Shown here: positions 2,723 to 49,035 of the stretch, piece by piece
How the letters are laid out: the number at the start of each line of letters is the position of its first letter
How positions within the stretch are numbered: the stretch's first letter is position 1
DNA from: Minisyncoccota bacterium
GTDB lineage: Bacteria > Patescibacteriota > Minisyncoccia > Phycocordibacterales > UBA9973
DNA: 56,409 bases
Assembly (NCBI GenBank): GCA_041657885.1
Contig: JBBABB010000003.1
Location: forward strand, 1-56,409
Reading direction: 5' to 3'
The notes under the pieces: model-generated
What the model was told of the DNA's origin: nothing
Seen by the model: the letters and a program-made list of their open reading frames with translations, nothing else
Database searches by the model: none
Made by a program: the position numbers and the translations under genes

Positions 2723-3531
2723 ATTTTCCACTTCTCTATTTTTTTATGGTCGCCCGAGAGAAGAACCGCAGGCACTTTGTATTTCTTTTTATTATAAATT
2801 ATTATTTCAGGGCGAGTATAAACTTCGCTTGTTGAGACACGTTCTTCTTCTCTTGAATCAAAATTCCCTAGAACTCCTTCTATCTGACGTGAAATACAAT
2901 CGATGAGTATCATTGCTGGTATTTCTCCACCAGTGAGTACATAATTCCCTATTGAAATTTTTTTAAATTTACAGAACTTGTCCTGAGCTTGTCGAAGGAT
3001 TTTATCTACACGAGCGTCTATTCCTTCATACCGTCCACAAATCATAATTATGTCGGTATATTTTTTCGCAAAATTTTTAGCAACTTTTGTATCAAACTTT
3101 TCTGCATTAGGAATAAAATTAATAATTAAAATTTTTGGTTTTATTCCCCTCTTGAGGTGAGGTTGGGTAAGGGACCCAACCGTAAAACCTTTTGAGATAT
3201 CTTTGTAATCAAAGTATCCAAAAGGTGTACTGCTCCTGTAAGGAGGGCATCGAAGGGTGGGGTGGAGAATTTTTTTTGTTACATTCTCAACAGCTTTGAG
3301 AACTGGTTCTGCTCGCATGACCATACCTGGACCACCAGCGTATGGTCTATCATCCACCTGAAGAGAAACATTACCATCTGGCCAAACTTTTTTATATTTA
3401 CCTGTAACAAATTTACGAGGGTTTACAAAAGTAATTTTTATTTTTTTATTCTTTATCGCTCTACCTAGAATAGACTCATTCAAATATGAGTCAAACATTT
3501 CTGGGAATAATGTAATAATATGAAAATGCAT
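2716..3531 (-). CDS. trmD: tRNA (guanine37-N1)-methyltransferase TrmD with a 42-aa internal insertion
   Basis: MHFHIITLFPEMF, DDRPYAGGPGMVM, ICGRYEGIDARV and SIGNYVLTGGEIPAMILIDCISR match the TrmD signature regions. It lies in an rpsP-KH-trmD operon context. Confidence 0.9.
   Translation of the reverse strand: MHFHIITLFPEMFDSYLNESILGRAIKNKKIKITFVNPRKFVTGKYKKVWPDGNVSLQVDDRPYAGGPGMVMRAEPVLKAVENVTKKILHPTLRCPPYRSSTPFGYFDYKDISKGFTVGSLTQPHLKRGIKPKILIINFIPNAEKFDTKVAKNFAKKYTDIIMICGRYEGIDARVDKILRQAQDKFCKFKKISIGNYVLTGGEIPAMILIDCISRQIEGVLGNFDSREEERVSTSEVYTRPEIIIYNKKKYKVPAVLLSGDHKKIEKWKMR
3146..3267. repeat. 122-nt structured palindromic element (RPE-like), copy A, in frame inside trmD
   Basis: About 75 percent identical to 48443-48562 by eye. 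The two copies share three hairpins (GGTTGGG..CCCAACC, CTTTG taat CAAAG, CTCC tgtaa GGAG). It corresponds exactly to TrmD residues I88-G129 (ILHPTLRCPPYRSSTPFGYFDYKDISKGFTVGSLTQPHLKRG). Confidence 0.8.
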
Positions 3532-3535
3532 ATAT

Positions 3536-3608
3536 ACTGATCAACACTGATAATAAATACTGATTAGACACTGATAAAAGCTGACTTACACCGATTGATT
3601 CTGATTGG
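3536..3608. repeat. Left arm of the long inverted repeat flanking the GxxExxY gene (CTGAT motif array)
   Basis: actgatcaacactgataataaatactgattagacactgataaaagctgac... closely matches the reverse complement of 4040-4108 (gctgatcaactctgatgg..aactgataaacactgataaaaa). Confidence 0.75.
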
Positions 3609-3993
3609 TAAAATTAATTCTTCGACGAACTTCAACTTTTCTAGGTCCAAAATTTATAAGAAATCCTAAGGGTAATTTTGTTGATTTCAAATAATTCAAT
3701 AATTGAACTTCGTAATCCTTGGGCATAAAATCAACGGCTTTAATTTCAACTACTATATTATCATTTATAACAAAATCTGGGCGATAGACACCAACCTTAA
3801 CATCATCATAACTAATCGTCAAGGATTTTTCTCTTTCAAAATTAATACCTAATTTTTTCAATTCCAAAGCAAGTGCTTTTTGGTAAATTACTTCTTTATG
3901 TCCACCTCCTAAAATATTATGCACATTAAAACAAGCTCCTCTGATTTTATAAGATAAATCTTCGTACATAAAATTCTCAACCTTTTTGTTCAT
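3586..3993 (-). CDS. GxxExxY family protein (PD-(D/E)XK-like); the family is often encoded inside 23S rRNA intervening sequences
   Basis: The translation contains GGGHKEVIYQKAL (GxxExxY), RPDFVI and VVEIKA, and is 135 aa long. These features match my recollection of the GxxExxY family (TIGR04256). Confidence 0.8.
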   Translation of the reverse strand: MNKKVENFMYEDLSYKIRGACFNVHNILGGGHKEVIYQKALALELKKLGINFEREKSLTISYDDVKVGVYRPDFVINDNIVVEIKAVDFMPKDYEVQLLNYLKSTKLPLGFLINFGPRKVEVRRRINFTNQNQSV

Positions 3994-4136: not shown

Positions 4137-4487
4137 TTAGATACCCTTTAAATCTTCAAGCGCTGAATCAACTGACTTTGATGAATCACTACTTGATGGG
4201 GCTTGACTTGAGACTGGAGCTGAAGGATTTTCAATTTTACCACCTTCTGGCTCATTAATCTTTAGATTAACACGAGCATTATTTTTCATTCCAATAACTC
4301 GCAAAAGAGTTCTTATCGCTTTTGCAGTATTCCCCTGACGACCAATTATCTTACCCATATCTGCCGCATTAACGGTCATAGTTATAAGTACTCCCATCTC
4401 GTCTACTGTACGGTCGATTTTCACATCATCTGGATTATCAACCAAGGCTTTTACAACATATTCTAAAAATGCTTTATCGTCTGCCAT
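4137..4487 (-). CDS. KH-domain RNA-binding protein (YlqC/UPF0109-like) with a Ser/Pro-rich C-terminal tail
   Basis: It contains the GxxG KH motif KIIGRQGNTAKAIRTLL. Its position between rpsP and trmD is the conserved one. Confidence 0.85.
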   Translation of the reverse strand: MADDKAFLEYVVKALVDNPDDVKIDRTVDEMGVLITMTVNAADMGKIIGRQGNTAKAIRTLLRVIGMKNNARVNLKINEPEGGKIENPSAPVSSQAPSSSDSSKSVDSALEDLKGI

Positions 4488-5069: not shown

Positions 5070-6797
5070 TCAAATTGTTGAGAGTTGGAGAAATCGTAAG
5101 AGATCAGGTGGAAGTTCAAAACCTCTTTTATAAAGTTCATTTAGATAAAGTATCGCTTCTTCGTAATTTTTTTGCTCATAATAATATACTGTTAAAGCTT
5201 TCAAGGCATCTATGTAGTTCGGATTAATTTCTAATGTTTTTTTCCAATTAATAAGAGCTTCTTCGTATCTTTTTTGTCCAAAATACAATAATCCTAAATT
5301 AAAATATGCATTATCATAATAAGGATTAATTTCTAATTCTTTTTTATATTCACTTTCAGCCTCTACTAATTTATTTTGATTAGAATAAACAAGCCCTAAA
5401 TTATTGTGAGCCATTGGTTCATTTGGATTAAGTTCTAAGGCTATTTTGAATTCTTTTTCAGCATTATCCATATCTCCATCTAAATATTCCATAGCTCCTA
5501 AATTACTATGATTAAAAGCAAAACTTGGTGATGTTTCCGTAGCATTCTTCCAAAAACTAAGCTTGTCTTTATAATATTGATTACGATAAATTGTTACGGA
5601 AGAAAAAATTAATATTACTAACAAGCTGACAAACAAAATAATTTTTTTCCAATTAATTTCATAATTCATTCTCTTTCTAATAAAAGTCGGGATTCTAATC
5701 CTACCAAGTCCTAGAATCACAAAAATAAATCCAAACATCGGTAGATAAATTCTATTTTCAGAAAATTCAGGAATTGTACCAAGAGGTTTTATTAGTGTTA
5801 GTAAGATAAAAATAAAAAACCACAAAAAGCCAAAAATAATTAATTTTAAATTCTTTTTTTCACTCAAAATAAACCAAAATCCCAATAAAATTAAAGAAAT
5901 TATTCCATAAAATAGAGACATATCATTCATAACTGGAAAGACTGATAAATTAAAAGGTAAAAATATTTTGCCAATAGCAGGAATTAACGACGGTAAATTT
6001 TTATAAATGGAAAGGAAGACATTATAATCAGCATTACCTATAAAATTATGCAAAACCGACATACGTATTAAAAAATAAAAAACTCCTATACCTATAGAAC
6101 TAACTCCAAGTTTAAGATAAATTTTATAATTTTCAATTATTTTTCTCCAACCAACAAAAATTAAAAGGTAAGTCGCGCAAATGACTGGTAATACTACTGC
6201 TGTTTCTTTGGTAAAAAGAGCCAATGTAAAGAAAATTAAATACCATATAAAATATTTATTCTTTTCTGTTTGTAAAAAACCTAAAAAGAAAATAAGTGAT
6301 AAAAAAATAGAAATAACCAAAAGAGAATCATTGCGACCAGAAATAAAAGCTACAGTTTGTGCTGTTAAAGGATGAATACTAAAAATTAACGCGAATAAAA
6401 AGGCTGTTTCTTTTTTAATGTTCAATCTTAATAGAAAAACAAAAAGTAGGCAAATCGCGAGAATATGCAGTAATAGATTACTAAAATGTGACATGAAAAT
6501 GATAGCTCTTTCTCCAAACTGTGCATCTAACATAAATGTAAGTCGTTCAATAGGGCGATAAAAAGTTCCCCCATTATGTGGTGTTCTGAAAATATCTTCA
6601 TTAAAGGCTTGAGGAATATTCAATAAATTTTTATTAAACTGGTATTGTCCTGTTACTAAAACATTGTCATCTAAATAAACAATATTAAAGAAAAGTGTAG
6701 CCCCATAAACTAAAGAGATTAACAAAGTAATCCAAAAAAATGGATGCCATGATTCTAAAAATATTTTATAAAATTTGTTTTCTTTATTATCAATCAT
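5070..6797 (-). CDS. Polytopic membrane protein (GT39/PMT-like glycosyltransferase fold suspected) with C-terminal TPR repeats
   Basis: About 11 hydrophobic segments are followed by TPR units (NLGLVYSNQNKLVEAESEYKKELEINPYYDNAYFNLGLLYF...). It clusters with the GT2 and GtrA genes. Confidence 0.6.
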   Translation of the reverse strand: MIDNKENKFYKIFLESWHPFFWITLLISLVYGATLFFNIVYLDDNVLVTGQYQFNKNLLNIPQAFNEDIFRTPHNGGTFYRPIERLTFMLDAQFGERAIIFMSHFSNLLLHILAICLLFVFLLRLNIKKETAFLFALIFSIHPLTAQTVAFISGRNDSLLVISIFLSLIFFLGFLQTEKNKYFIWYLIFFTLALFTKETAVVLPVICATYLLIFVGWRKIIENYKIYLKLGVSSIGIGVFYFLIRMSVLHNFIGNADYNVFLSIYKNLPSLIPAIGKIFLPFNLSVFPVMNDMSLFYGIISLILLGFWFILSEKKNLKLIIFGFLWFFIFILLTLIKPLGTIPEFSENRIYLPMFGFIFVILGLGRIRIPTFIRKRMNYEINWKKIILFVSLLVILIFSSVTIYRNQYYKDKLSFWKNATETSPSFAFNHSNLGAMEYLDGDMDNAEKEFKIALELNPNEPMAHNNLGLVYSNQNKLVEAESEYKKELEINPYYDNAYFNLGLLYFGQKRYEEALINWKKTLEINPNYIDALKALTVYYYEQKNYEEAILYLNELYKRGFELPPDLLRFLQLSTI

Positions 6798-7713
6798 TTT
6801 TATCTTTTTGCGCGATAATTGTTATAACTTCCCCACTTCTAGAAAAATAAAGACATAAATTAATTAAAAGGCATGGTAAAAATAAAATAGTAAAAAGAAA
6901 AACATGCCAAATTATTTTTGGATTAGAATCTCTATTTTGAAGCCACTCAAAAAAATATGAATCCGAATTAGTTATTAGATTCATAATGCTTTGTGTAGAA
7001 GTAAAAGTTGAATATTCCAAAGAAAAGGTCCTAATTTTTTTAATTTTTAAATTATACTTTTTAAGTAGAGAAACTATAGATGAAGGCATAAAAAAAGTTA
7101 AATGGTGTTTTAAATCCAAAGCTAACCAATGTTCTTGAGTTAATTTTCTTGTCCATGAATTATAATTAGGAACTTCGATGAATAATAAACCTTTTGTGTT
7201 AAGTAATTCGTAGACCCTTTCTACATATTCTTCAGGATTTTTTACGTGTTCCAATACGTGCAAAATACTAATAACATCAAACTTTTTTTCAAAAGACAGT
7301 TCAAGAAGGTCTTTGTTGTAAATTTCTAATTTCAGCTTTTCTTTTGAAAATTTATAAGCATTTTCGGCAATTTGAGTCCCTATCACTCTATCATATTTAA
7401 AATATTTTTTCAGAAAATAAAGTATCCATCCCCGGCCACTTCCTATATCTAAGATACTTTTAGCTTTTGTGTTTAAAGAGTAAATCTTATAAGCACGTAT
7501 AAAACGAAATATTTTCACTATAAACTCAATGATAATACTAAATCTACTCCCAGTTTCCTTTTCATAATAATTACTATAAACTTCTACCAAGTTTAAAATT
7601 TTTTGCTCATCCTTACAAGCAAAAATTAATTCACATGATAAACATTTACAAAGCTTATAGCCCTTTGTTTCTAAAATAATTTCGGGATTTTCATTTTGGC
7701 AAATCATATGCAA
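6790..7713 (-). CDS. Class I SAM-dependent methyltransferase with an N-terminal Cys pair motif and a C-terminal TM segment
   Basis: Motif I is ILDIGSGRGW, followed by DVISILHVLEHV. The N-terminal motif is CKCLSCELIFAC. Confidence 0.7.
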   Translation of the reverse strand: MHMICQNENPEIILETKGYKLCKCLSCELIFACKDEQKILNLVEVYSNYYEKETGSRFSIIIEFIVKIFRFIRAYKIYSLNTKAKSILDIGSGRGWILYFLKKYFKYDRVIGTQIAENAYKFSKEKLKLEIYNKDLLELSFEKKFDVISILHVLEHVKNPEEYVERVYELLNTKGLLFIEVPNYNSWTRKLTQEHWLALDLKHHLTFFMPSSIVSLLKKYNLKIKKIRTFSLEYSTFTSTQSIMNLITNSDSYFFEWLQNRDSNPKIIWHVFLFTILFLPCLLINLCLYFSRSGEVITIIAQKDKND

Positions 7714-7719
7714 ATGTTT

Positions 7720-8454
7720 TTACTTTTTATAAATTTTTCTTATACGAGTTTTAAAAAAGAATTTTAGCGCTGTAAAAAGTGTAAGAATACCATACTCTAA
7801 ACTATGAACAAAATTAATTGAAGAAGATTCTGCGGTGTATCTTACAGGAATTGGTATATCACCTATACGATACCCTTTTTCTATAATCTGAAATAGAACC
7901 TCTGTATCAAAAACAAAATTATCAGAATTATTTATAAAATCAATTTTCTCTAAGACTTCTCTTTTGTATGCTCGGAGTCCTGTATGCCATTCAGATAAAT
8001 TATATCCACTTAATGTATTTTCCCAAAAAGTAAGGAAACGATTGGCAAAATATTTATAAAGGGGCATTCCACCTTCTAGTGCCTCTTTTCTAGATCTGAT
8101 TCTTGAGCCTAACATTACATCAGCATATCCCTCTTCAATAAAACCCACCAAATATTTTATTACTTTTGCATCATATTGATAATCAGGATGAATCATAACA
8201 ATAATATCCGCGCCTTTCTCTAGTGCAATACGGTAACATGTTTTTTGATTGGCTCCATAACCCTTATTTTTATTATGACAATATACAGTTATATTAAGTT
8301 TTCGCGCCAAAATAACTGTCTCGTCATTACTACCATCATCAACTAATATAATTTCACTGACAATATCTTTTGGTATATCTTCCACTGTTCTTTTTAGGGT
8401 TGTTTCAGCATTAAAAGCAGGAAGGATAACGATGACTTTTGGTTTTTTATTCAT
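7720..8454 (-). CDS. Family 2 glycosyltransferase (polyprenol-phosphate sugar transferase-like)
   Basis: VIVILPAFNAE, LVDDGSNDET and MIHPDYQYD are typical of the GT2 / GT-A fold. Confidence 0.8.
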   Translation of the reverse strand: MNKKPKVIVILPAFNAETTLKRTVEDIPKDIVSEIILVDDGSNDETVILARKLNITVYCHNKNKGYGANQKTCYRIALEKGADIIVMIHPDYQYDAKVIKYLVGFIEEGYADVMLGSRIRSRKEALEGGMPLYKYFANRFLTFWENTLSGYNLSEWHTGLRAYKREVLEKIDFINNSDNFVFDTEVLFQIIEKGYRIGDIPIPVRYTAESSSINFVHSLEYGILTLFTALKFFFKTRIRKIYKK

Positions 8455-31971: not shown

Positions 31972-31972
31972 G

Positions 31973-32059
31973 CGGAGGGTGAGGGATTTGAACCCTCGAA
32001 GGTTGTAACACCTTACACGCTTTCCAAGCGTGCGCAATAGACCACTATGCGAACCCTCC
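31973..32059 (-). tRNA. tRNA-Ser (anticodon GGA), type II with a long variable arm; CCA is not encoded
   Basis: Hand-folded cloverleaf: acceptor GGAGGGT/ACCCTCC; anticodon stem CACGC/GCGTG with loop TTGGAAA; variable arm AAGGT gttaca ACCTT; T arm GAGGG TTCAAAT CCCTC. Confidence 0.85.
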
Positions 32060-40681: not shown

Positions 40682-40793
40682 GTGCTGGCGGCAACCTACT
40701 TTCCCCGTTTATAGAGTATCATCGGCGCAACGAGACTTAACTTCTGTGTTCGGAATGAGAACAGGTGTGACCCCCGTGTTGAACCACCAACAC
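40682..40793 (-). rRNA. rrf: 5S rRNA
   Basis: The reverse complement reads GTGTTGGTGGTTCAACACGGGGGTCACACCTGTTCTCATTCCGAACACAGAAGTTAAGTCTCGTTGCGCCGATGATACT...GTAGGTTGCCGCCAGCAC. It contains the conserved CCGAAC..AGAAGTTAAG box and a 10-bp terminal helix. Confidence 0.9.
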
Positions 40794-40861
40794 AAAAAAT
40801 TCAACTATTTTATTTTCAAATTTTACTACATTACCCTCTTGGTAATGACAGATATAATACC

Positions 40862-40891
40862 TGAAAACTGAATGCTGTGAACGCAATAATA
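40862..40891 (-). other. 3' strand of the pre-23S processing stem
   Basis: tgaaaactgaatgctg (40862-77) is perfectly complementary to 46684-46699. gaacgcaataat (40880-91) is complementary to 46614-46625. Confidence 0.75.
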
Positions 40892-41134
40892 TGATTTCCA
40901 AATTTCCTAATAGGAATCGAACGATTAGTACGCCTCGGCTGAACACATTGCTGTGCTTACACCTAGCGCCTATCAACCTGATCATCTCTCAGGTTTCTCA
41001 AACGATTCCTCATCTTGAAGCTGGCTTCCCTCTTAGATGCTTTCAGAGGTTATCCATTCCCGACATAGCTACCGGGCAGTCCACTTGGCAGTAGAGCCCG
41101 TACACCAGAGGTCAGTTCATTCCGGTCCTCTCGT

Positions 41135-41545
41135 CACTTCATAAAAACTAAATTATTTTAGTTTTCACTATTCCCCTATTTCTAGGAGCGCAGACTATAT
41201 CTTCACCTTTTTCTGAAAAATTCAGAACGAAGGGTTGGCATATTACAGATATATGCAGTCATTTTCTAAGAAATGATTCCTCATATATAAGTCTCTCCTT
41301 ACGGATTAGTCGTTACGGGGTCAAACCTAAAACCCTATGCAAATCTTTGCATCAAGATAAATTAGATCGACTTCCCACGGTATTATCTTATCATTTTCTG
41401 GTCCTCAAGTAAATTCTCAACACAACGGCAGGACCGCACATTTGTGTATGTATAAGTGGACAAAAAATAATTTAAGACTTCACCGTTATTAGCCAAATTG
41501 TCATCACAAATTTCTTTGTGAAGTAGCAGAAACCCTCTCGGGTCT
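41135..41545 (-). mobile_element. Group I intron (411 nt, no ORF) inserted in the sarcin-ricin loop sequence
   Basis: The exons read ...GTTCCTAGT | intron | ACGAGAGGACCGG. The 5' exon ends in U and the intron ends in G. P1 pairs UAGU+AGA with UCUGCUA and has a U.G pair at the splice site. An S-like element GAAGATATAGTC lies at 41192-41205. Confidence 0.8.
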
Positions 41546-41701
41546 ACTAGGAACAAATCTTCTCAAGAATCAACGCCTGCAGTAGATAGGAGACCAACCT
41601 GTCTCACGACGGTTTGAACCCAGCTCGCGTACCTTTTTAATTAGCGAACAGCTAAACCCTTGGTAGCTTCTCCACCACCAGGATAAGGTGAGCCGACATC
41701 G

Positions 41702-41993
41702 TAAACGTAGCTATCAACAAAATATTTTAATTGCTAATAACACCGCCATCACTGGCGGGATCGGACTATATCTTCATCCTTCCATTAATCAATAATAATG
41801 GTTAGGAGATTGGCGTCTAGTCTCTGAGGATTCTTGTTAAAAATTTTAACAAGCCTTTCCTGCTGATTACCTTATCAATTACGAATAAGGGTTCCAGCAT
41901 ATGGCCAATTATTTTATTTTTCTCTTTACACCTATCAAACGTAAAGAAAAAACGCTAATATTATTTCTAATATGGCACCCCGATAATATGTTA
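41702..41993 (-). mobile_element. Group I intron (292 nt, no ORF) after U2500 (E. coli numbering by hand count), in the peptidyl-transferase centre
   Basis: The exons read GTTCGGCACCT | intron | CGATGTCGGCTC. P1 pairs GGCACCU with GGGUGCC (41974-80) with a U.G pair. P10 pairs AUCG with CGAU. The conserved Q (AATCAGCAGGAAAGG), R (CCTCAGAGACTAGACGC) and S (GATGAAGATATAGTCC) elements are present. Confidence 0.8.
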
Positions 41994-42234
41994 AGGTGCC
42001 GAACTCCGCCGTCGATATGAACTCTTAGGCGGAACTAGCCTGTTATCCCTAGAGTAGCTTTTATCCGTTAATCTTCATCCGCATCTAATGCGAAATGTCG
42101 GTTCACTATGTTCTACTTTCGTATCTGCTCGAGATGTACCTCTTACAGTTAAGCTAGCTTGTGCCATTACACTATCGGCACGATTTCCATTCGCGCCTAG
42201 CTAACCTTAATAAACTCCTCCGTTACTCTTTAGG

Positions 42235-43508
42235 CATTTATGTTAACCCAATTTATATTTTAAACTTGGAAGTATATATGGCTCAATTATATTTTTAAAT
42301 AATTGTGCCGATTCGCTATACACATACAGTCTCCATTGTGAATATTGTTTATGTATTCCGACTTTAATTCCAAACTTTTTTTCAAAAACATCTTTAATTA
42401 ACTCAAGCTCATCTTTTGTGTAGCAATTCGAATGAATTATATATGTTTTATGGTGGACAGATTTATATGACCCATCATCCATAAACCACATTGCTAAACT
42501 TTTTTGACTAAACAACTTAAAAATAATTTTAGGCATTACTTTTTTACCATTATGATAAAATTGTTGTCCATAAAATCTAAATATATCGCTTGAAATTGTC
42601 ATAAAACCATAAGATTTTAATTCTTTTCCAAGTGATATTCTTGTTCTTTCTTTTGGAGCTGATATCGTGAATTCCTTAAAAATTTGATACAAATAATCAA
42701 CATATTCTTTCTGTTTGATTGAGTGCTCAACTTTAAGGCGATATGTTCTGCCATTGTTTTGTGTTTCCAAATGGCCATCTCCTAAAATAATTCCTACAAG
42801 AATTTCTTTTTGTTCATCCGTAAGCTTTTCACTAATCGTTTTACTTTGTTTTGTTTTCATATTAGGTTTTCTAATTTTAAATTAGAACTTCATGTCGCCA
42901 TGAAGATCGGACTATATCATCATCTCAACTTTAGTTGAGAGCCAGCGTATAGTCTCTGAGGATTTTTATCAGATTCCCAAAGAAGGAGAAGAAAAAATAT
43001 TGTTATACTTTCTCTTCTCAAAATTTTCAAAACCTTAGATGAGATTTAACTTTTTACAGTCCATGTAGTTGACTCAACAAGATTCAACCAGCCAAAAGTA
43101 TTGTTCAACATACGTCTATGTATTCCTCTACAATCGTTAAGTTGTCCTGATTATACGGACTCTGTCATTATGCTTACACACAATGAGTATCTACCTAAGT
43201 GGTAGCCTACTTTTTCTCCTTGGTCTTGAATTAAATTCAAAGAACATTTCTCCTTCTTTGGAAACCCAATAAATCTTTCCTGCTGATTGTCCGCCGATTT
43301 TTACATCTCACTTTAAGATTTTTACTATTTATATTTTATAATAAATTAGTACTTAAAGATACATGCGGATGTTTCAGCATACAGCTGATTTTCTATCATC
43401 GTTTACACGATGATGTCCCCTTGTTTTATTTTTTTCGAGGTGGATTAGACCTCTCGAGGCGGCATAGTTCGAGAATTCAAATAGAAATTTATTCTGTTTA
43501 AATTCTCG
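42235..43508 (-). mobile_element. Group I intron (1274 nt) carrying a LAGLIDADG homing endonuclease gene, inserted just 3' of the P-loop (about E. coli 2262 by hand count)
   Basis: The exons read ACTGGGGCGGTATCCT | intron | CCTAAAGAGTAACGGAGG. The 5' exon ends in U and the intron ends in G. Q (AATCAGCAGGAAAG), R (CCTCAGAGACTATACGC) and S (GATGATATAGTCC) elements are present. The ORF occupies the 3' third of the intron. Confidence 0.8.
42243..42860 (-). CDS. Double-motif LAGLIDADG homing endonuclease (intron-encoded)
   Basis: It has two LAGLIDADG motifs, ILVGIILGDGHL and LAMWFMDDGS, and is 205 aa long. It lies entirely inside the intron. Confidence 0.85.
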   Translation of the reverse strand: MKTKQSKTISEKLTDEQKEILVGIILGDGHLETQNNGRTYRLKVEHSIKQKEYVDYLYQIFKEFTISAPKERTRISLGKELKSYGFMTISSDIFRFYGQQFYHNGKKVMPKIIFKLFSQKSLAMWFMDDGSYKSVHHKTYIIHSNCYTKDELELIKDVFEKKFGIKVGIHKQYSQWRLYVYSESAQLFKNIIEPYILPSLKYKLG

Positions 43509-43819
43509 AGGATACCGCCCCAGTAAAACTACCCACCAGATACTGTCTCTCTACGTTTTTGCCGTAGAGATTAGAATATATCGTCACAAAGAATGGTATT
43601 TCACTGTCGAGTAAATCACAACCGAGATCGTGACCATCAAACCTCTCCCATCTATGCTACGCAGAATAACCATATACTCAATATCAAGCTGCAGTAAAGC
43701 TTCTAGGGTCTTTTCGTCTATCTGCAGGTAACCGGCATCTTCACCGGTATTGTATTTTCACCGAGCAGGTCTTCGAGACAGCTCTCCAGTCATTATGCCA
43801 TTCGTGCGCGTCGGAACTT

Positions 43820-44059
43820 CATTACTCAACACCAATTTATTTATAAAAATTAGTGTGAACCCTTTATTTCTAAAGGAATGGACTATATCTTCATCCTTAA
43901 TAAATTATTAAGGATGTTTGCGTGTAGTCTCTACGGTGTCCCCGTAAATTATGGGGTTCCCTCGGTATTGCCATATTTAATTTTCATTAAACTTAGGTTT
44001 CACCGATACAGCAAATTATCGATCAGTTTTACAACTGAAAGGGGCAAGTTCCGATACTT
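43820..44059 (-). mobile_element. Minimal group I intron (240 nt, no ORF) after U1951 (E. coli numbering by hand count)
   Basis: The exons read CCTTGTCGGGT | intron | AAGTTCCGACGCGCACGAATGG. P1 pairs GGGUAAGU with ACUUGCCC and has a U.G pair at the splice site. The intron ends in G. R (CCGTAGAGACTACACGC) and S (GATGAAGATATAGTCC) elements are present. Confidence 0.8.
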
Positions 44060-44073
44060 ACCCGACAAGGTAC

Positions 44074-44114
<41 letters not shown>

Positions 44115-44294
44115 CAGGGCTTATATCAGCCAGCCTACATCTTGCGACATAGACCACCGATATTTGACCTTCTGGCATTGGTCAGGCATCACCCCCTATA
44201 CATCCTCTTACGAGTTCGCAGGGAGCTGTGTTTTTGATAAACAGTTGCCAGAGATACTTTCGCTGCGGCCCCGGGCATCACGCTACGCGCGATG

Positions 44295-44377
44295 TTAATT
44301 AAGAATTAATAATTAAAAATTAATAATGAAATACAAAATGCATTCAATTCTTAATTCCTAATTCATAATTATTAATT
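44295..44377 (-). other. AT-rich heptad-periodic hairpin expansion (IVS-like) in the 23S helix 63 region
   Basis: One arm is AATTAAG AATTAAT AATTAAA AATTAAT AATGAAA. The complementary arm is TTCTTAA TTCCTAA TTCATAA TTATTAA. Both have an exact 7-nt period and are embedded where E. coli has the short helix 63. Confidence 0.7.
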
Positions 44378-45040
44378 GCATCACATGCAATGTGATGCCT
44401 AGGGCAAGCCTTATTCCAAAGTTACGGCTGCTTGTTTGCCGAGTTCCTTGAAGACCTCTCACTCGTTCGCCTTGGTCTACTCGACCTGATTACCTGTGTC
44501 GGTTTACGGTACGGATTCTATTTCATTAACCTTAGATACTTTTCTTGGAAGCGTGCTTTATAAAATCTGCCTCGACGAATCGAAACATTTATGCCTCGCT
44601 TGGGTGCCACTTTTACGTGCATCTTCCGGATTTTCCTGGAAGAAACCCTCACTAACATACTCAAATCCAATAATGAGCTTTATATACTACACTCCGTCCT
44701 ATCATCGAATAAAATAGAAGTCAGGGAATATTAACCCTGTGCCCATCGGATGCGGCTATCGCCATTTCCTTAGGACCGACTAACCCTGGGGTGATTACCA
44801 TTGCCCAGGAAACCTTAATCTTTCGGCGGGAAGGGATCTCACCTTCCTTGCGGTTACTTGTGCCAACATTCTTACTTCCACACGCTCCACCATGGGTCAC
44901 CCCTTTGGCTTCGACGCTGAGTGGAAAACTCTCCTACCGCTCCCAATTTTAAAAAAATGGAAGCCCTCAATTTCGGTATTATGTTTAGCCCCGATTATTT
45001 TCGGTGCGAAATCTCTGGATGAGTGAGCTGTTACGCTTTC

Positions 45041-45072
<32 letters not shown>

Positions 45073-45203
45073 TCATTGTCAGAGAAATTTCACCTCCTTG
45101 ATTTGCACTTAACATAAATTTAGGGACCTTAATTAGAGATCTGGGCTGTTTCCCTTTTGGCTGATGGAGCTTCGCCCCCATAGCCTAACTGCCGTGTTTT
45201 TTA

Positions 45204-45338
45204 CCCCCACACCTACTTTACCATCGTTCTGTTTTTTCAAAACAACATTAACATTATTTTAATATTCTAATTAATAATATTATTTTTAATAATACAATCA
45301 ATACAGAACAAAAAACAATGGCAAAGTAGGTGTGGGGG
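45204..45338 (-). repeat. 135-nt hairpin IVS in 23S helix 45 (CCCCCACACCTA family, copy 1)
   Basis: cccccacacctactttaccatcgttctg...cagaacaaaaaacaatggcaaagtaggtgtggggg replaces the helix-45 tip, between GAATACTAAGAGTAAAC and TAAAAAACACGGCAG. It is about 98 percent identical to 46076-46212. Confidence 0.85.
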
Positions 45339-45725
45339 TTTACTCTTAGTATTCGGAGTTTGATAGAATTCGCGAGATTACTCCCTGTCGAAACCTTCCA
45401 GTGCTCTACCCCTAAGAGGAACACACGACGCTAGCCCTAAAGCTATTTCGGAGAGAACCAGCTATTACCAGGTTCGATTAGTTTTTCACTCCTTACCACA
45501 AGTCATCCGAGACTATTGCACGGGTCACCGGTTCGGACCTCCATCTGCCTTTCGACAAACTTCATCCTGCTCATGGCAAGCTCACCTGGCTTCGGGTCTT
45601 ATCTAGACTACATTTATTTCGCGCTATTAACACTCGGTTTCCCTAAGGCTCCACTGTTCTAACAGCTTAGCCTGCAGCATAGATAAACTCGTTGGCTCAT
45701 TCTTCAATAGGCACGCCGTGACGGA

Positions 45726-45771
45726 CAGAACAAAATTTTCGAAAAAAATTCCTTTCAAAAATTTTGTTCTG
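45726..45771 (-). other. Extended helix 25 hairpin (small IVS-like expansion)
   Basis: CAGAACAAAATTTT cgaaaaaaattcctttca AAAATTTTGTTCTG lies at the helix-25 position. It shares the CAGAACAAAA string with the 135-nt IVS family. Confidence 0.6.
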
Positions 45772-45826
45772 CCCGCTCCGACTCCTTGTAAGTATATGGT
45801 TTCAGGTCTATTTCACTCCCCTTATC

Positions 45827-45869
<43 letters not shown>

Positions 45870-46075
45870 ATCTAAAAAAGTATTTAGCCTTACCAGTTAG
45901 TTCTGGTGGATTCGCTCAAGCTATTCGTGTCTTGAGTTACTCAAGAATGACAATCAAGAAGATGTGAAATTTTCAACCACCGGGCTATCACCGTCTATGG
46001 CTCTTCTTTCCAGAAGATTAATCTAACAACACATTTTGTAACTTCTCTAGATAAATCTACATTGTCATCTTACAA

Positions 46076-46212
46076 CCCCCCCACACCTACTTTACCATCG
46101 TTCTGTTTTTTCAAAACAACATCAACATTATTTTAATATTCTAATTAATAATATTATTTTTGATAATACAATCAATGCAGAACAAAAAACAATGGCAAAG
46201 TAGGTGTGGGGG
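46076..46212 (-). repeat. 137-nt hairpin IVS in 23S domain I (CCCCCACACCTA family, copy 2)
   Basis: It has the same sequence as 45204-45338 apart from 3 substitutions. It is inserted right after AGTAGCGGCGAGCGAAAAGGAAAGAGCCCAAA. Confidence 0.85.
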
Positions 46213-46496
46213 TTTGGGCTCTTTCCTTTTCGCTCGCCGCTACTCAGAAAATAAATATTTTTCTCTTTTCCTCCAGGTACTGAAATGTTTTACTTCCCTG
46301 GGTATGCTCTTTTGTGTCAAGCACAAAAGTTTCTAAGGATTACTTAGAAGGGTTTCCCCATTCAGAAATTTCCGGATCAAAGGTTGCTAGGCACCTCCCC
46401 GAAACGTATCGCCGCCATGCTACGTCTTTCATCGCCTTTTTTAGTCTAGGCATCCGCCATATACTCTTATATTTCCTATTAGGAAATATGAAAACC

Positions 46497-47722: not shown

Positions 47723-48340
47723 CTACTTTTTAGAAATATATGTGGATAACTGCCCGTTGTCTATAAGCTTCTCATGTGGCAAGTCTATGATGTCACAGAC
47801 CAATTTATCATACATATCAACACGATATTTAAATTCATTAGTATCAAAAACCACATAATCAAGCTCCTTCCCTATCTCGGCTTCTAGTCCTTTAATGACT
47901 TGTTGTAAAATGTTCTTTTTGAGTTTGTCCCCGACGATAAGAACATCGGCTCGGCTCTTGCTATTGCCGATAAATACTCCCGATACTACCATTAATTTAA
48001 TTTTCCCTACTTGTTTGAAGCGCTGAGGTAAGTCCTCTTGAAGTAAAAGAGTTGGGTCTACAAGAATATCTCTTATGGACTGAAGGTATCGGAATGATGG
48101 GTTTAATGACCAAACAACAACTTTCTTTTTTGTGCCACGATAACCCTCTTTTGTTATAACTTTCTGCTTAATAAAATCTATAACAGATAAAGCATTTATT
48201 TCTTTACGGGCATTGGTTTTTGTTATACGACTACGAGATACAACTTCTTCAACTTCAAAATTACTGTTATTATTTAATAAAAAAAGACGCATTATCCTGA
48301 CACGTGCCTGACCACCAAAAAGTTTTGATAGAGTTTCCAT
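47723..48340 (-). CDS. Hypothetical protein with an N-terminal winged-helix-like domain
   Basis: METLSKLFGGQARVRIMRLFLLN resembles ArsR-type wHTH proteins. The start is moved to the ATG at 48340 because the ORF-track N-terminus (48385) reads through the 48359-48434 hairpin. Confidence 0.55.
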   Translation of the reverse strand: METLSKLFGGQARVRIMRLFLLNNNSNFEVEEVVSRSRITKTNARKEINALSVIDFIKQKVITKEGYRGTKKKVVVWSLNPSFRYLQSIRDILVDPTLLLQEDLPQRFKQVGKIKLMVVSGVFIGNSKSRADVLIVGDKLKKNILQQVIKGLEAEIGKELDYVVFDTNEFKYRVDMYDKLVCDIIDLPHEKLIDNGQLSTYISKK

Positions 48341-48358
48341 ACCACCAATATACACCTT

Positions 48359-48434
48359 AAAAAACACCCCCGCAAGCCCCCACACCTATATTTTGTTTAA
48401 TTAAATATAGGTGTGGGGGCAAGGGGTGTTTTTT
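48359..48434. repeat. Composite hairpin whose inner stem has the same base as the 23S IVS family (CCCCCACACCTA)
   Basis: AAAAAACACCCC cgcaag CCCCCACACCTATAttttgtttaattaaaTATAGGTGTGGGGG caa GGGGTGTTTTTT. Confidence 0.8.
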
Positions 48435-48442
48435 TGAGTTTT

Positions 48443-48562
48443 CCTCCCCTGCTAAGGGGTGAGCTTGGGCAAGGGACCCAAGCGCAAGACCTTGAACGTT
48501 TTGTAATCAAAATGTGAAAGGTGTACTGCTCCTGTAAGGAGGTGCCAAAGGCGGAGGGGTGA
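48443..48562. repeat. 120-nt structured palindromic element (RPE-like), copy B, intergenic
   Basis: It aligns along its whole length with 3146-3267. Stem changes are compensatory: GCTTGGG/CCCAAGC against GGTTGGG/CCCAACC, and TTTTG/CAAAA against CTTTG/CAAAG. The block aaggtgtactgctcctgtaaggagg is identical in both. Confidence 0.8.
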
Positions 48563-48567
48563 ATTAT

Positions 48568-49035
48568 TTACCTCAACGTAACCTTACCACCCGCTGTTTC
48601 CAATTTCTTCTTAAATTCTTCTGCTTCAACTTTTTTCATACCTTCTTTAAGTACTGAAGGAGCGCCATCAACTAAATCCTTTGCTTCTTTAAGTCCAAGA
48701 GCAAGAACTTCTTTGACAACTTTCATAACGGCAATTTTCTGTTCACCTGCAACTGTAAGCTCAACAGTAAAAACACTTTTTTCCTCAACTGCCTCCCCTA
48801 CGACTGCAGGACCAGCTGATGCGACTGTGGCTGCTGAGACCCCAAACTTTTCTTCTAATATTTTTACAAGTTCGTGCAAATCAAGAACTGACATTTCTTC
48901 TATTTTTGAAACTATGTCCTTGAATTTTGCAGGAACCCCGCCTGAATGATTTTCAGATCGGGCAGGTGTTGTTTTAGCATTAGTCTTTTCTTCTTTTTTG
49001 ACTTCTGCTTTCTCTTCCATTTTTGTTTCTTCCAT
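48568..49035 (-). CDS. rplL: 50S ribosomal protein L7/L12 with a Lys/Glu-rich N-terminal extension of about 35 aa
   Basis: [28 protein letters not shown], a hinge, and the C-terminal domain [27 protein letters not shown] are present. Confidence 0.9.

Follow-up and report, generated by a model that had tools for sequence, protein, structure and literature searches.

How does an essential gene come to carry, in frame, a piece of DNA that recurs as non-coding sequence elsewhere in the same genome? This question is raised by a 56,409-nt stretch of a Minisyncoccota bacterium (assembly GCA_041657885.1, contig JBBABB010000003.1; hereafter the window, meaning the whole stretch), in which the tRNA m1G37 methyltransferase gene trmD contains 42 additional codons, and a sequence in the 3' untranslated region of rplL, antisense to it and 5 nt past its stop codon, resembles the DNA of these codons. 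A preliminary description, made from the letters alone, had seen in the two sequences a structured repeat comparable to the Rickettsia palindromic elements (RPEs), for which it knew of no counterpart in the Candidate Phyla Radiation (CPR). We find that the element occurs widely among Patescibacteria of the Paceibacteria/Parcubacteria type, and on balance we favour the view that it is a miniature, non-autonomous, structure-dependent mobile repeat, similar in behaviour to RPEs or to miniature transposable elements with inverted repeats (MITEs), which is tolerated in a permissive loop of TrmD.

Both copies lie where they had been reported. In blastn, positions 3132-3246 match 48431-48542 on the same strand (80.5% identity over 118 nt, E=1.3e-18), and the copies can be aligned from end to end with MAFFT. 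The identical 25-nt block, AAGGTGTACTGCTCCTGTAAGGAGG, occurs exactly twice in the window (3222-3246 and 48518-48542), whereas 100 shuffled sequences gave an expectation of 0. The copies are distinguished by paired substitutions (GGTTGGG/CCCAACC versus GCTTGGG/CCCAAGC, and CTTTG/CAAAG versus TTTTG/CAAAA), and both substituted stems correspond to helices, P2 and P3, that covary throughout the family described below. Compared with shuffled sequences, the + strand folds with z = -4.4 and -2.8 for the two copies. A covariance model (R1) was built from 50 family members; apart from the two copies, its next match in the window reaches only 15.6 bits, and hence the window contains exactly two. In the + orientation both have stop codons in all three frames, and the intergenic copy has stops also in the frame that is open in trmD.

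The pair does not stand alone. When one genome of each GTDB species was scanned for exact matches to the 21-mer GTGTACTGCTCCTGTAAGGAG, at least 119 stretches of DNA (8-kb excerpts) from 103 assemblies came up, which places the family in at least 103 Patescibacteria assemblies. Several of these hold 2-4 loci each among the matches listed. The carriers among these matches are Patescibacteria/Parcubacteria-type or unclassified metagenome-assembled genomes (MAGs) and include Nomura-, Kaiser-, Zambryski-, Taylor-, Yonath- and Azambacteria as well as Paceibacterota; the host of the window has a GC content of 34%, and its nearest proteins are from Paceibacteria or Nomurabacteria. The sole non-CPR MAG among the matches listed, labelled "uncultured Bdellovibrionales" (L095, CAYMLA010000388.1, 2966 bp), is represented by a 3-kb contig; this is probably contamination of the bin and not a genuine presence of the family beyond Patescibacteria. 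The search for further copies with a covariance model, which the preliminary description had proposed, gave with R1 117 matches in 708 kb of family loci, ~16 of them without the exact 21-mer; the family thus reaches beyond this 21-mer, which, as the seed of the scan, makes the invariance of P4 partly a matter of construction.

The element matches no family of the RNA library searched. Rfam 15 at the gathering score gave no match on it in the window or in 18 loci, be it tRNA, tmRNA, self-splicing intron, small ribozyme or any other model, and permissive searches (E up to 10 for the two copies, up to 0.5 for four tRNA-linked loci) returned noise only. A full-text search of the literature for CPR/Patescibacteria repeats or structured RNAs, for tRNA-like elements and for analogues of RPEs likewise found no description of it.

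Common to all copies is a core of ~80-90 nt with three helices (P2, P3, P4), which can be written as 5'-GGUGAG-P2-CGCAAGACC-P3-GGUGUACUG-P4(CUCCU GUA AGGAG)-3'. Variation hardly touches the junctions and P4; P2 and P3 differ freely between copies yet remain paired. In the alignment of 50 copies, standard pairs occupy 94.5% of the cells versus 79.4% in shuffles (0 of 500 shuffles reach the observed value), 173 cells are changed on both sides versus 58 in shuffles, and pairing drops to 38-54% if the partners are slid by 1-3 columns. For individual P2 pairs, as many as 29 of the 50 sequences carry a change in both partners. The flanking GGUGAG..CGCAAG covaries with GUUGAA..UGAAAG; the second G of GGUGAG, which elsewhere pairs with the second C of CGCAAG, forms a G:U wobble with the U of CGUAAA in the copy within trmD. 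Of P2 and P3 there is a small set of interchangeable variants, combined differently from copy to copy. The variation thus follows base pairing, and the proposal that a nucleic-acid structure rather than a protein underlies the similarity of the two window copies is borne out. Since G:U appositions outnumber A:C appositions (27 versus 9, p=0.004), the + strand is the strand that folds. This strand is antisense to trmD and to rplL, and therefore their mRNAs carry only its mirror image.

Outside the core the family is heterogeneous. In the subfamily to which the window copies belong, the core is flanked by short inverted outer arms. At locus L127 the arm ATTCCCCTCTTGAGG has a full inverted partner, CCACCCCTCAAGAGGGGAAT, ~70 nt past the core (ATTCTCCTCTTGAGG... 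pairing with ...CCTCAAGAGGGGAAT), so that the outer arms are there terminal inverted repeats; those of the window copies are short and pair imperfectly, and in copies linked to tRNA genes or rplK they are absent, host-derived helices being found instead. The arm type of the rplL-side copy also flanks the copies in L022, L024, L074 and L077. Other copies have a conserved outer context of their own: in 9 loci (including L069, L082, L097, L043, L030, L038 and L072) P4 is followed by a hairpin and then UAUGCGUGACCGA, in 6 loci (including L047, L081 and L097) UUGAAAGACGGAG precedes the core, and long outer stems surround some copies, e.g., an 18-bp stem in L069. Such copies may be parts of larger composite RNAs or elements.

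How the element sits in trmD can be read from the orthologues. The gene is intact, and the copy is in frame and open, as had been stated. Among 7985 TrmD homologues the closest are 67-72% identical and 225-256 aa long, and an alignment of orthologues shows that the conserved and catalytic blocks are present despite the insert. Matches to TrmD chains in the PDB fall on either side of it; residues 84-135 stand in place of a linker of ~10 residues (74-83) of 4mcb_A, an example chain. The 42-residue segment, for which the preliminary description had asked whether it is lineage-specific, is so only in part: the central ~29-30 aa, encoded by the 87-88 nt core, are private to this genome, whereas both ends (~12-13 aa, HPTL[R/Q]xxLKRGI) are present in the orthologues P0002, P0004 and P0008, which have these ends only. 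The site without core is seen at L120, where the allele reads TTTATTCCCCTCTTGAGG|GGTGCCTGAAGGGTGGGGTGGA (..CTTGAGG|GGTGCC..), compared with TTTATTCCCCTCTTGAGG[88-nt core]GGCATCGAAGGGTGGGGTGGA (..CTTGAGG[core]GGCATC..; core boundaries ~3158-3245) in the window. The arms of the two alleles are identical in 18 of 18 nt (5') and 15 of 15 nt (3', GAAGGGTGGGGTGGA), the proteins in 67% of their residues.

The trmD copy is furthermore 95.1% identical over 103 nt to the intergenic copy at L127, from which it differs by a compensatory change of G:C to A:U, and L127 and the window have nothing else in common. Likewise, the 66 nt upstream of the 21-mer in the rplL-side copy are 94% identical to the copy at L077, the flanks of which are unrelated. 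Near-identical copies are thus present at unrelated loci in other genomes. AlphaFold2 predicts TrmD residues 94-128 as coil devoid of secondary structure (predicted local distance difference test, pLDDT, <50); the underlying alignment was shallow and the mean pLDDT 60.7, so that this lends weak support to a disordered loop. Tryptic peptides predicted from the insert include SSTPFGYFDYK and GFTVGSLTQPHLK.

The TrmD site is a variable loop, and its inserts in orthologues have many lengths. In the trmD genes of L121 (1501-2244) and L122 (282-1049) a different palindrome is found in frame at the same codon position, with perfect stems of 17-18 bp (ATTCTTAAACGATTTTT...AAAAATCGTTTAAGAAT, encoding ILKRFLK...KSFKNLR); the same type occurs in P0005, P0013, P0039, P0062, P0083 and P0113 and probably represents a second family of coding hairpin repeats. 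What gathers in the TrmD loop is accordingly DNA hairpins and not peptide functions.

The gene of an ExoX-like 3'-5' exonuclease (L022, P0121) bears the element in the same antisense frame as trmD. Its orthologues have either no insert (P0126, P0129, P0133, P0137, P0206), or the arms only, encoding DPLALTGT-PPSQEGEE (P0124, P0125, P0127, P0192) or a variant peptide (P0128, P0147, P0188), or the arms plus the core, encoding DPLALTGT[PYRSSTPFGQKDVSKGLALGSLTPSS]PPSQEGEE (P0121, P0122, P0123). The filled site, GAAGGGGG[TGAGC...78 nt...GTAAGG]AGTGCCC, can be compared directly with the empty one, GAAGGGGGAGTACCC. Presence and absence of the element at the same site is therefore seen in two genes. 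P0124, which is 91% identical to P0121, lacks the core, whereas the more distant P0122 and P0123 (79-81%) possess it. A comparison of L022 with L123 gives identities of 98.8% for the core and of 100% and 92% for the arms, versus 71-72% for the flanking coding sequence (48% at third codon positions; the best 82-nt window of the flanks reaches 80.5%). As the element is far better conserved than the gene that hosts it, it is no neutral relic; its arrival or exchange was recent, or selection on it is very strong.

The copies within genes (trmD, and ExoX in three lineages) are free of stop codons, share one frame (..PYRSSTPFG..) and make the gene 87 or 78 nt longer than the empty alleles. Freedom from stops and a length divisible by three are what read-through translation predicts; removal of the element from the RNA would need neither. 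The stops in all frames of the + strand explain why only antisense insertions survive in genes. In-frame insertions were searched for among proteins with a profile of the 42 residues, which gave 99 candidates and 2 short open reading frames (ORFs), and with phmmer against 1.84 billion representatives, which gave 6 short ORFs. A query this short is insensitive, and clustering at 50% identity hides alleles bearing the insert, so that rarity in genes is suggested rather than proven.

Most copies are intergenic (107 of 123), and ~2 of 123 loci are in genes. Around the copies, where genes were assigned by crude ORF calls, their orientation relative to the two flanking protein genes follows no rule (same/same 35, opposite/opposite 26, mixed 25). 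A tRNA gene is located within 400 nt of 40 of the 123 copies, and in ~31 of these 40 it lies upstream on the same strand, mostly 30-80 nt away and usually separated from the element by a terminator. The helix that closes the core of tRNA-linked copies, and from which P2 branches off, is built from this tRNA: its 3' strand repeats the last 15-25 nt of the tRNA directly after P4, and its 5' strand, upstream of the core, is the exact reverse complement of the tRNA 3' end. This reverse complement covers the discriminator and one further base, and hence was not copied from the 5' flank of the tRNA itself. Such helices were seen for eight identities (Thr, His, Ile, Glu, Trp, Val, Ser, Lys), and in L012, L029, L039, L053, L061, L070, L094, L100, L110 and L119 the insert lies between direct repeats of the tRNA 3' end, downstream of an intact tRNA gene. 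Bracketing of this kind is confined to the tRNA-linked subfamily; the window copies are without it. Copying of the repeats from mature tRNA with CCA was considered and rejected, as it fits L012 and L029 only. At two loci the core occupies the position of the variable loop in a partial duplicate of the adjacent tRNA, which is tRNA-Ile in L039 (~6435-6640; its 3'-terminal 25 nt match the real gene exactly) and tRNA-Ser in L065 (~7700-8000).

A comparable arrangement is found behind rplK, which the element follows in ~10 species. Here P2 is composed of the last rplK codons and a partner that covaries with these codons in at least 8 species, and a diverged direct repeat of the last codons comes after P4. 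Tandem copies directly after rplK were found in L087 (5200-5400), L013 (4816-5103) and L067 (698-900), those of L087 being identical 96-nt repeats. In the family as a whole, flanking direct repeats of at least 13 nt accompany 19 of 112 copies versus ~0.4% for mismatched flanks; they are enriched, of variable length (10-30 nt) and made of the 3' end of the upstream gene.

According to the view that we favour, that of a mobile mini-element, the element, or the arms first and then the core, would have inserted into trmD DNA where it encodes a short linker at the protein surface, joining the N-terminal block to the central strand, in the orientation that leaves the reverse complement with an open frame and the gene intact; the mRNA would be read straight through, and TrmD would gain 42 residues, probably as a disordered loop. 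Spread may proceed through a folded single-stranded intermediate of the + strand, either RNA or single-stranded DNA (ssDNA), recognised by a factor that would act in trans and be encoded elsewhere in the genome; the invariant GGUGUACUG-CUCCUGUAAGGAG would be the likely site of recognition or cleavage, and insertion may be accompanied by duplication or copying of the local target sequence. Several observations weigh against this proposal. The two window copies are only 80% identical and differ by compensatory changes, whereas a burst of transposition would give near-identical copies; this looks like long-term upkeep of each copy. The orientation-specific placement at tRNA genes and rplK could mean a host function rather than a target preference, and conservation above the level of the host gene could reflect purifying selection on a functional RNA. 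The alleles with arms only may be target sites, or else the remains of copies that have lost their core. A target-site duplication of fixed length was not definable at trmD or ExoX, and transposase, recombinase and reverse transcriptase families were not recurrent within ~4 kb of the copies (1296 ORFs of 119 loci were clustered), the only recurrent neighbours being an ABC transporter, L11, NusG and EF-G. Furthermore, the viral contig collection contains no exact match to the 21-mer.

The same observations can be explained by an RNA module that serves the host, namely a mimic of the tRNA top half (T-arm and acceptor stem) or an element acting in cis where tRNA and rplK transcripts end. It would be bound by a conserved cellular factor and its copies kept by selection, those in trmD and ExoX being accidents, tolerated by-products of the duplication or recombination of such modules. 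This explanation, the main rival, appears rather unlikely to us. In its favour, the junctions and P4 are nearly invariant across the 103 assemblies listed while the stems covary, it is the + strand that folds, the ~31 copies behind a same-strand tRNA have closing helices reproducing the acceptor and T-stem of that neighbour for eight identities, the partner in P2 follows the rplK codons in the sense orientation, copies within one genome are old, with compensated changes, and the element is better conserved than the host gene. However, both window copies and ~40% of the intergenic copies are antisense to the surrounding genes, and because of these and of the terminator usually standing between tRNA and element, expression of the + strand is not assured. 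Polymorphism in essential or housekeeping genes, near-identical copies at unrelated loci and tandem copies are the behaviour of mobile DNA; in addition, no RNA family matches, and the sole tRNA gene of the window (31972-32059) is without the element. Far less probable is that the trmD transcript loses the element, which would behave like an intron or would cleave itself out and religate the RNA, to give a TrmD without the 42 residues, which the preliminary description had offered as an alternative. The element is compact and highly structured, one of three possible placements of the ExoX core boundaries gives GU...AG ends on the + strand, and the genome carries group I introns in its 23S rRNA gene. 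Yet the strand that folds is not the sense strand of trmD, which is encoded on the minus strand; in the mRNA each G:U pair is turned into a C:A mismatch, searches at E up to 10 found no match to an intron or ribozyme family, ~98% of the copies are intergenic, in either orientation, and the trmD and ExoX copies keep the frame and lack stops, which matters only if they are translated. The least credible explanation is an ordinary lineage-specific loop of TrmD, its similarity to 48443-48562 being incidental or that of a trmD pseudogene fragment. The site is variable and orthologues have inserts of many lengths there; but the intergenic copy has stops in the frame concerned, the same sequence is non-coding in more than 100 genomes, its variation follows pairing rather than codons, and other orthologues have at this place a different DNA palindrome.

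The tRNA- and rplK-linked copies also permit a reading in which the family would be a new class of element, one that makes its closing helix anew at every locus out of the 3' end of the gene upstream, either because the element is a guided or templated mobile RNA or ssDNA, or because the copies are top-half mimics matched to their tRNAs. We regard this as doubtful, and equally so its extension for the mobile case, that the variable arm serves as a guide open to reprogramming, with the direct repeat as the mark of the target. If it is true, the trmD insertion would be a side product, and the core would be able to enter or leave a site precisely.

Several further candidates were rejected. P4 contains UAAGGAG and could be thought to donate a Shine-Dalgarno sequence; downstream start codons are mostly far too distant. 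For an autoregulatory mimic of the 23S rRNA sites of L1, L11 or L10, the 23S rRNA gene of the window gave no meaningful R1 match, and the copy next to rplL is antisense to it. A resemblance to hammerhead, hairpin or T-box RNAs found no support from the models. Finally, TIGR arrays are tandem guide arrays of parasitic bacteria (PMC12045711); the copies described here are single apart from a few tandem pairs and form no guide arrays.

Among known repeats, the RPEs are closest in behaviour. RPEs, like the family described here, are short (~100-150 nt), form hairpins, are present in many copies and have no capacity to encode a transposase, and they are found between genes as well as in frame within housekeeping genes, whose products gain a peptide loop at a structurally permissive position. 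The palindromic repeat lies in frame in an intact gene in trmD and in ExoX of three lineages, so that the analogy drawn in the preliminary description holds. To our knowledge, colonisation of essential genes by structured repeats in frame has essentially one textbook case, that of Rickettsia. In both systems different host proteins contain the element translated in one and the same frame (PMC10969869). However, the RPEs belong to another phylum; the likeness is one of behaviour, a relationship in sequence is not claimed, and membership in the Rickettsia sequence families RPE-1 to RPE-10 is implausible. RPEs are reported to enter ORFs unusually often, with 44 insertions in metabolic genes of Rickettsia conorii (PMC10969869), and are thus very frequent in genes compared with ~2% of the copies sampled here. 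A near-invariant junction-plus-hairpin of 21-25 nt, heavy stem covariation across more than 100 assemblies and a strong linkage to tRNA 3' flanks, with arms copied from the tRNA, do not figure in the description of RPEs given there.

Bacterial MITEs (Correia/CREE, ERIC, RUP, BOX, Nezha) are likewise small, non-autonomous, multi-copy and found in either orientation, and MITE-like features of our family are the terminal inverted repeats of the arm-bearing subfamily (full at L127, short and imperfect in the window copies), the arms-only alleles, which would correspond to internal-deletion derivatives, and occasional in-frame fusions. Unlike MITEs, it has no target-site duplication of fixed length and no parent insertion sequence identified near the copies; many copies lack inverted terminal arms and take their closing helix from host sequence, copies of the same genome have diverged with compensatory changes, and the structure is strand-specific. 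Repetitive extragenic palindromic (REP) sequences, bacterial interspersed mosaic elements (BIMEs) and the ends of IS200/IS605 elements have strand-specific hairpins adjoined by a short invariant single-stranded motif, and REPs are moved in trans by REP-associated tyrosine transposases (RAYTs, IS200/IS605-like HUH enzymes) without a rule of inverted repeats or target duplications and mostly into intergenic regions; the family described here is similar, and would likewise be moved in trans. REPs are single hairpins of 20-40 nt with a conserved 5' tetranucleotide, usually clustered or in inverted pairs, whereas our element is a three-helix junction of 80-90 nt occurring in single copies, and RAYT or TnpA genes were not seen among the neighbouring ORFs of 119 loci.

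The tRNA-linked copies recall elements that integrate at tRNA 3' ends, being orientation-specific, downstream of an intact tRNA and accompanied by a direct repeat of 15-25 nt. However, the "island" is here ~150-200 nt long and encodes nothing, the reverse complement of the repeat is carried as well and forms a helix of the RNA or ssDNA type, unlike an integrase att site, and no integrase or site-specific recombinase is among the recurrent neighbours. As in tRNA-like domains (e.g., that of tmRNA), an acceptor-like helix is stacked on a T-stem-like helix and the other arms are replaced; unlike in these, the core takes the place of the T-loop, the helix sequences come from the neighbouring tRNA, and there are many copies.

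Features of the two copies and their host genes in the window
Feature	Position	Strand	Evidence or remark
trmD (tRNA m1G37 methyltransferase), intact, 271 aa	2716..3531	-	Pfam PF01746, E=9.6e-30, two stretches
42 codons H90-K131 from the element (~12 aa arms, ~29-30 aa core)	3139..3264	-	ORF, translation, orthologue alignment
trmD copy, 5' outer arm ATTCCCCTCTTGAGG, left terminal inverted repeat	3143..3157	+	encodes ..LKRGI on the minus strand
trmD copy, core	3156..3247	+	R1 91.3 bits (E=4e-22); family covariation; orthologous site in L120 without core
trmD core, GGTGAG	3156-3161	+	
trmD core, P2, GGTTGGG/CCCAACC, loop TAAGGGA	3161-3181	+	
trmD core, junction GTAAAA	3182-3187	+	
trmD core, P3	3188-3225	+	
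trmD core, junction TGTACTG	3226-3232	+	
trmD core, P4, CTCCT-GTA-AGGAG	3233-3245	+	
trmD copy, 3' outer arm GGCATCGAAGGGTGGGGTGGAGAAT	3246..3270	+	minus-strand peptide ILHPTLRC..
Intergenic composite copy: 5' arm CCTCCCCTGCTAAGGGG, core, 3' arm GTGCCAAAGGCGGAGGGGTG	48443..48561	+	sequence, alignment, blastn
Intergenic copy, core	48458..48543	+	R1 92.0 bits (E=2.6e-22)
rplL (L7/L12)	48568..49035	-	Pfam PF00542 and PF16320; ORF list
Large near-perfect palindrome, A and T runs at its flanks	48361..48432		sequence; probable bidirectional terminator

Beyond the intergenic copy, the large palindrome probably ends the rplL transcript, as its sequence suggests; Rfam at the E-value threshold matched it solely as generic long hairpins. 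The annotated GTG start of the neighbouring ORF (47723-48385, minus strand) falls within this palindrome, so that the true start is probably an internal ATG (METLSKLFGG...). The naming of this ORF as a winged helix-turn-helix gene found no Pfam match. TrmD has a second, smaller private insertion at ~180-189 (window ~2965-2994), RQAQDKFCKF, where orthologues have KT and P0008 has a different insertion of 17 aa. An ORF of the PD-(D/E)XK nuclease family (3586-3993, minus strand; Pfam PDDEXK_3, E=2e-37) is located between a KhpA-like gene (4137-4487) and trmD; the order in L120 and L121 is S16-KhpA-TrmD with nothing intervening. The spacer next to this ORF (3536-3610) contains a run of short repeats with CTGAT. 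Finally, the 23S rRNA gene is interrupted (rRNA region 40683-46466, minus strand): Rfam matches it to large-subunit rRNA in separate parts (43753-46466 and 43513-43695) and assigns two group I introns (43860-44069, 41742-41960), with 5S rRNA at 40683-40791. This fits the abundant insertions for which CPR rRNA genes are known (PMC11270868).

CPR genomes thus hold an abundant sequence family that is annotated in none of the libraries searched, and because of which conserved proteins seem to have more "lineage-specific insertions" and small ORFs are called that are spurious. If the element is mobile as we favour, it would be a second, independent case of in-frame colonisation, this time in the reduced genomes of CPR bacteria, and would suggest a recurrent route by which protein loops arise in tiny genomes. 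The invariant junction and hairpin, the covarying stems, the arms copied from tRNA and the three allele states point to a specific mechanism of mobility or recognition, and the many natural variants are available for finding the partner enzyme through phylogenetic profiling.

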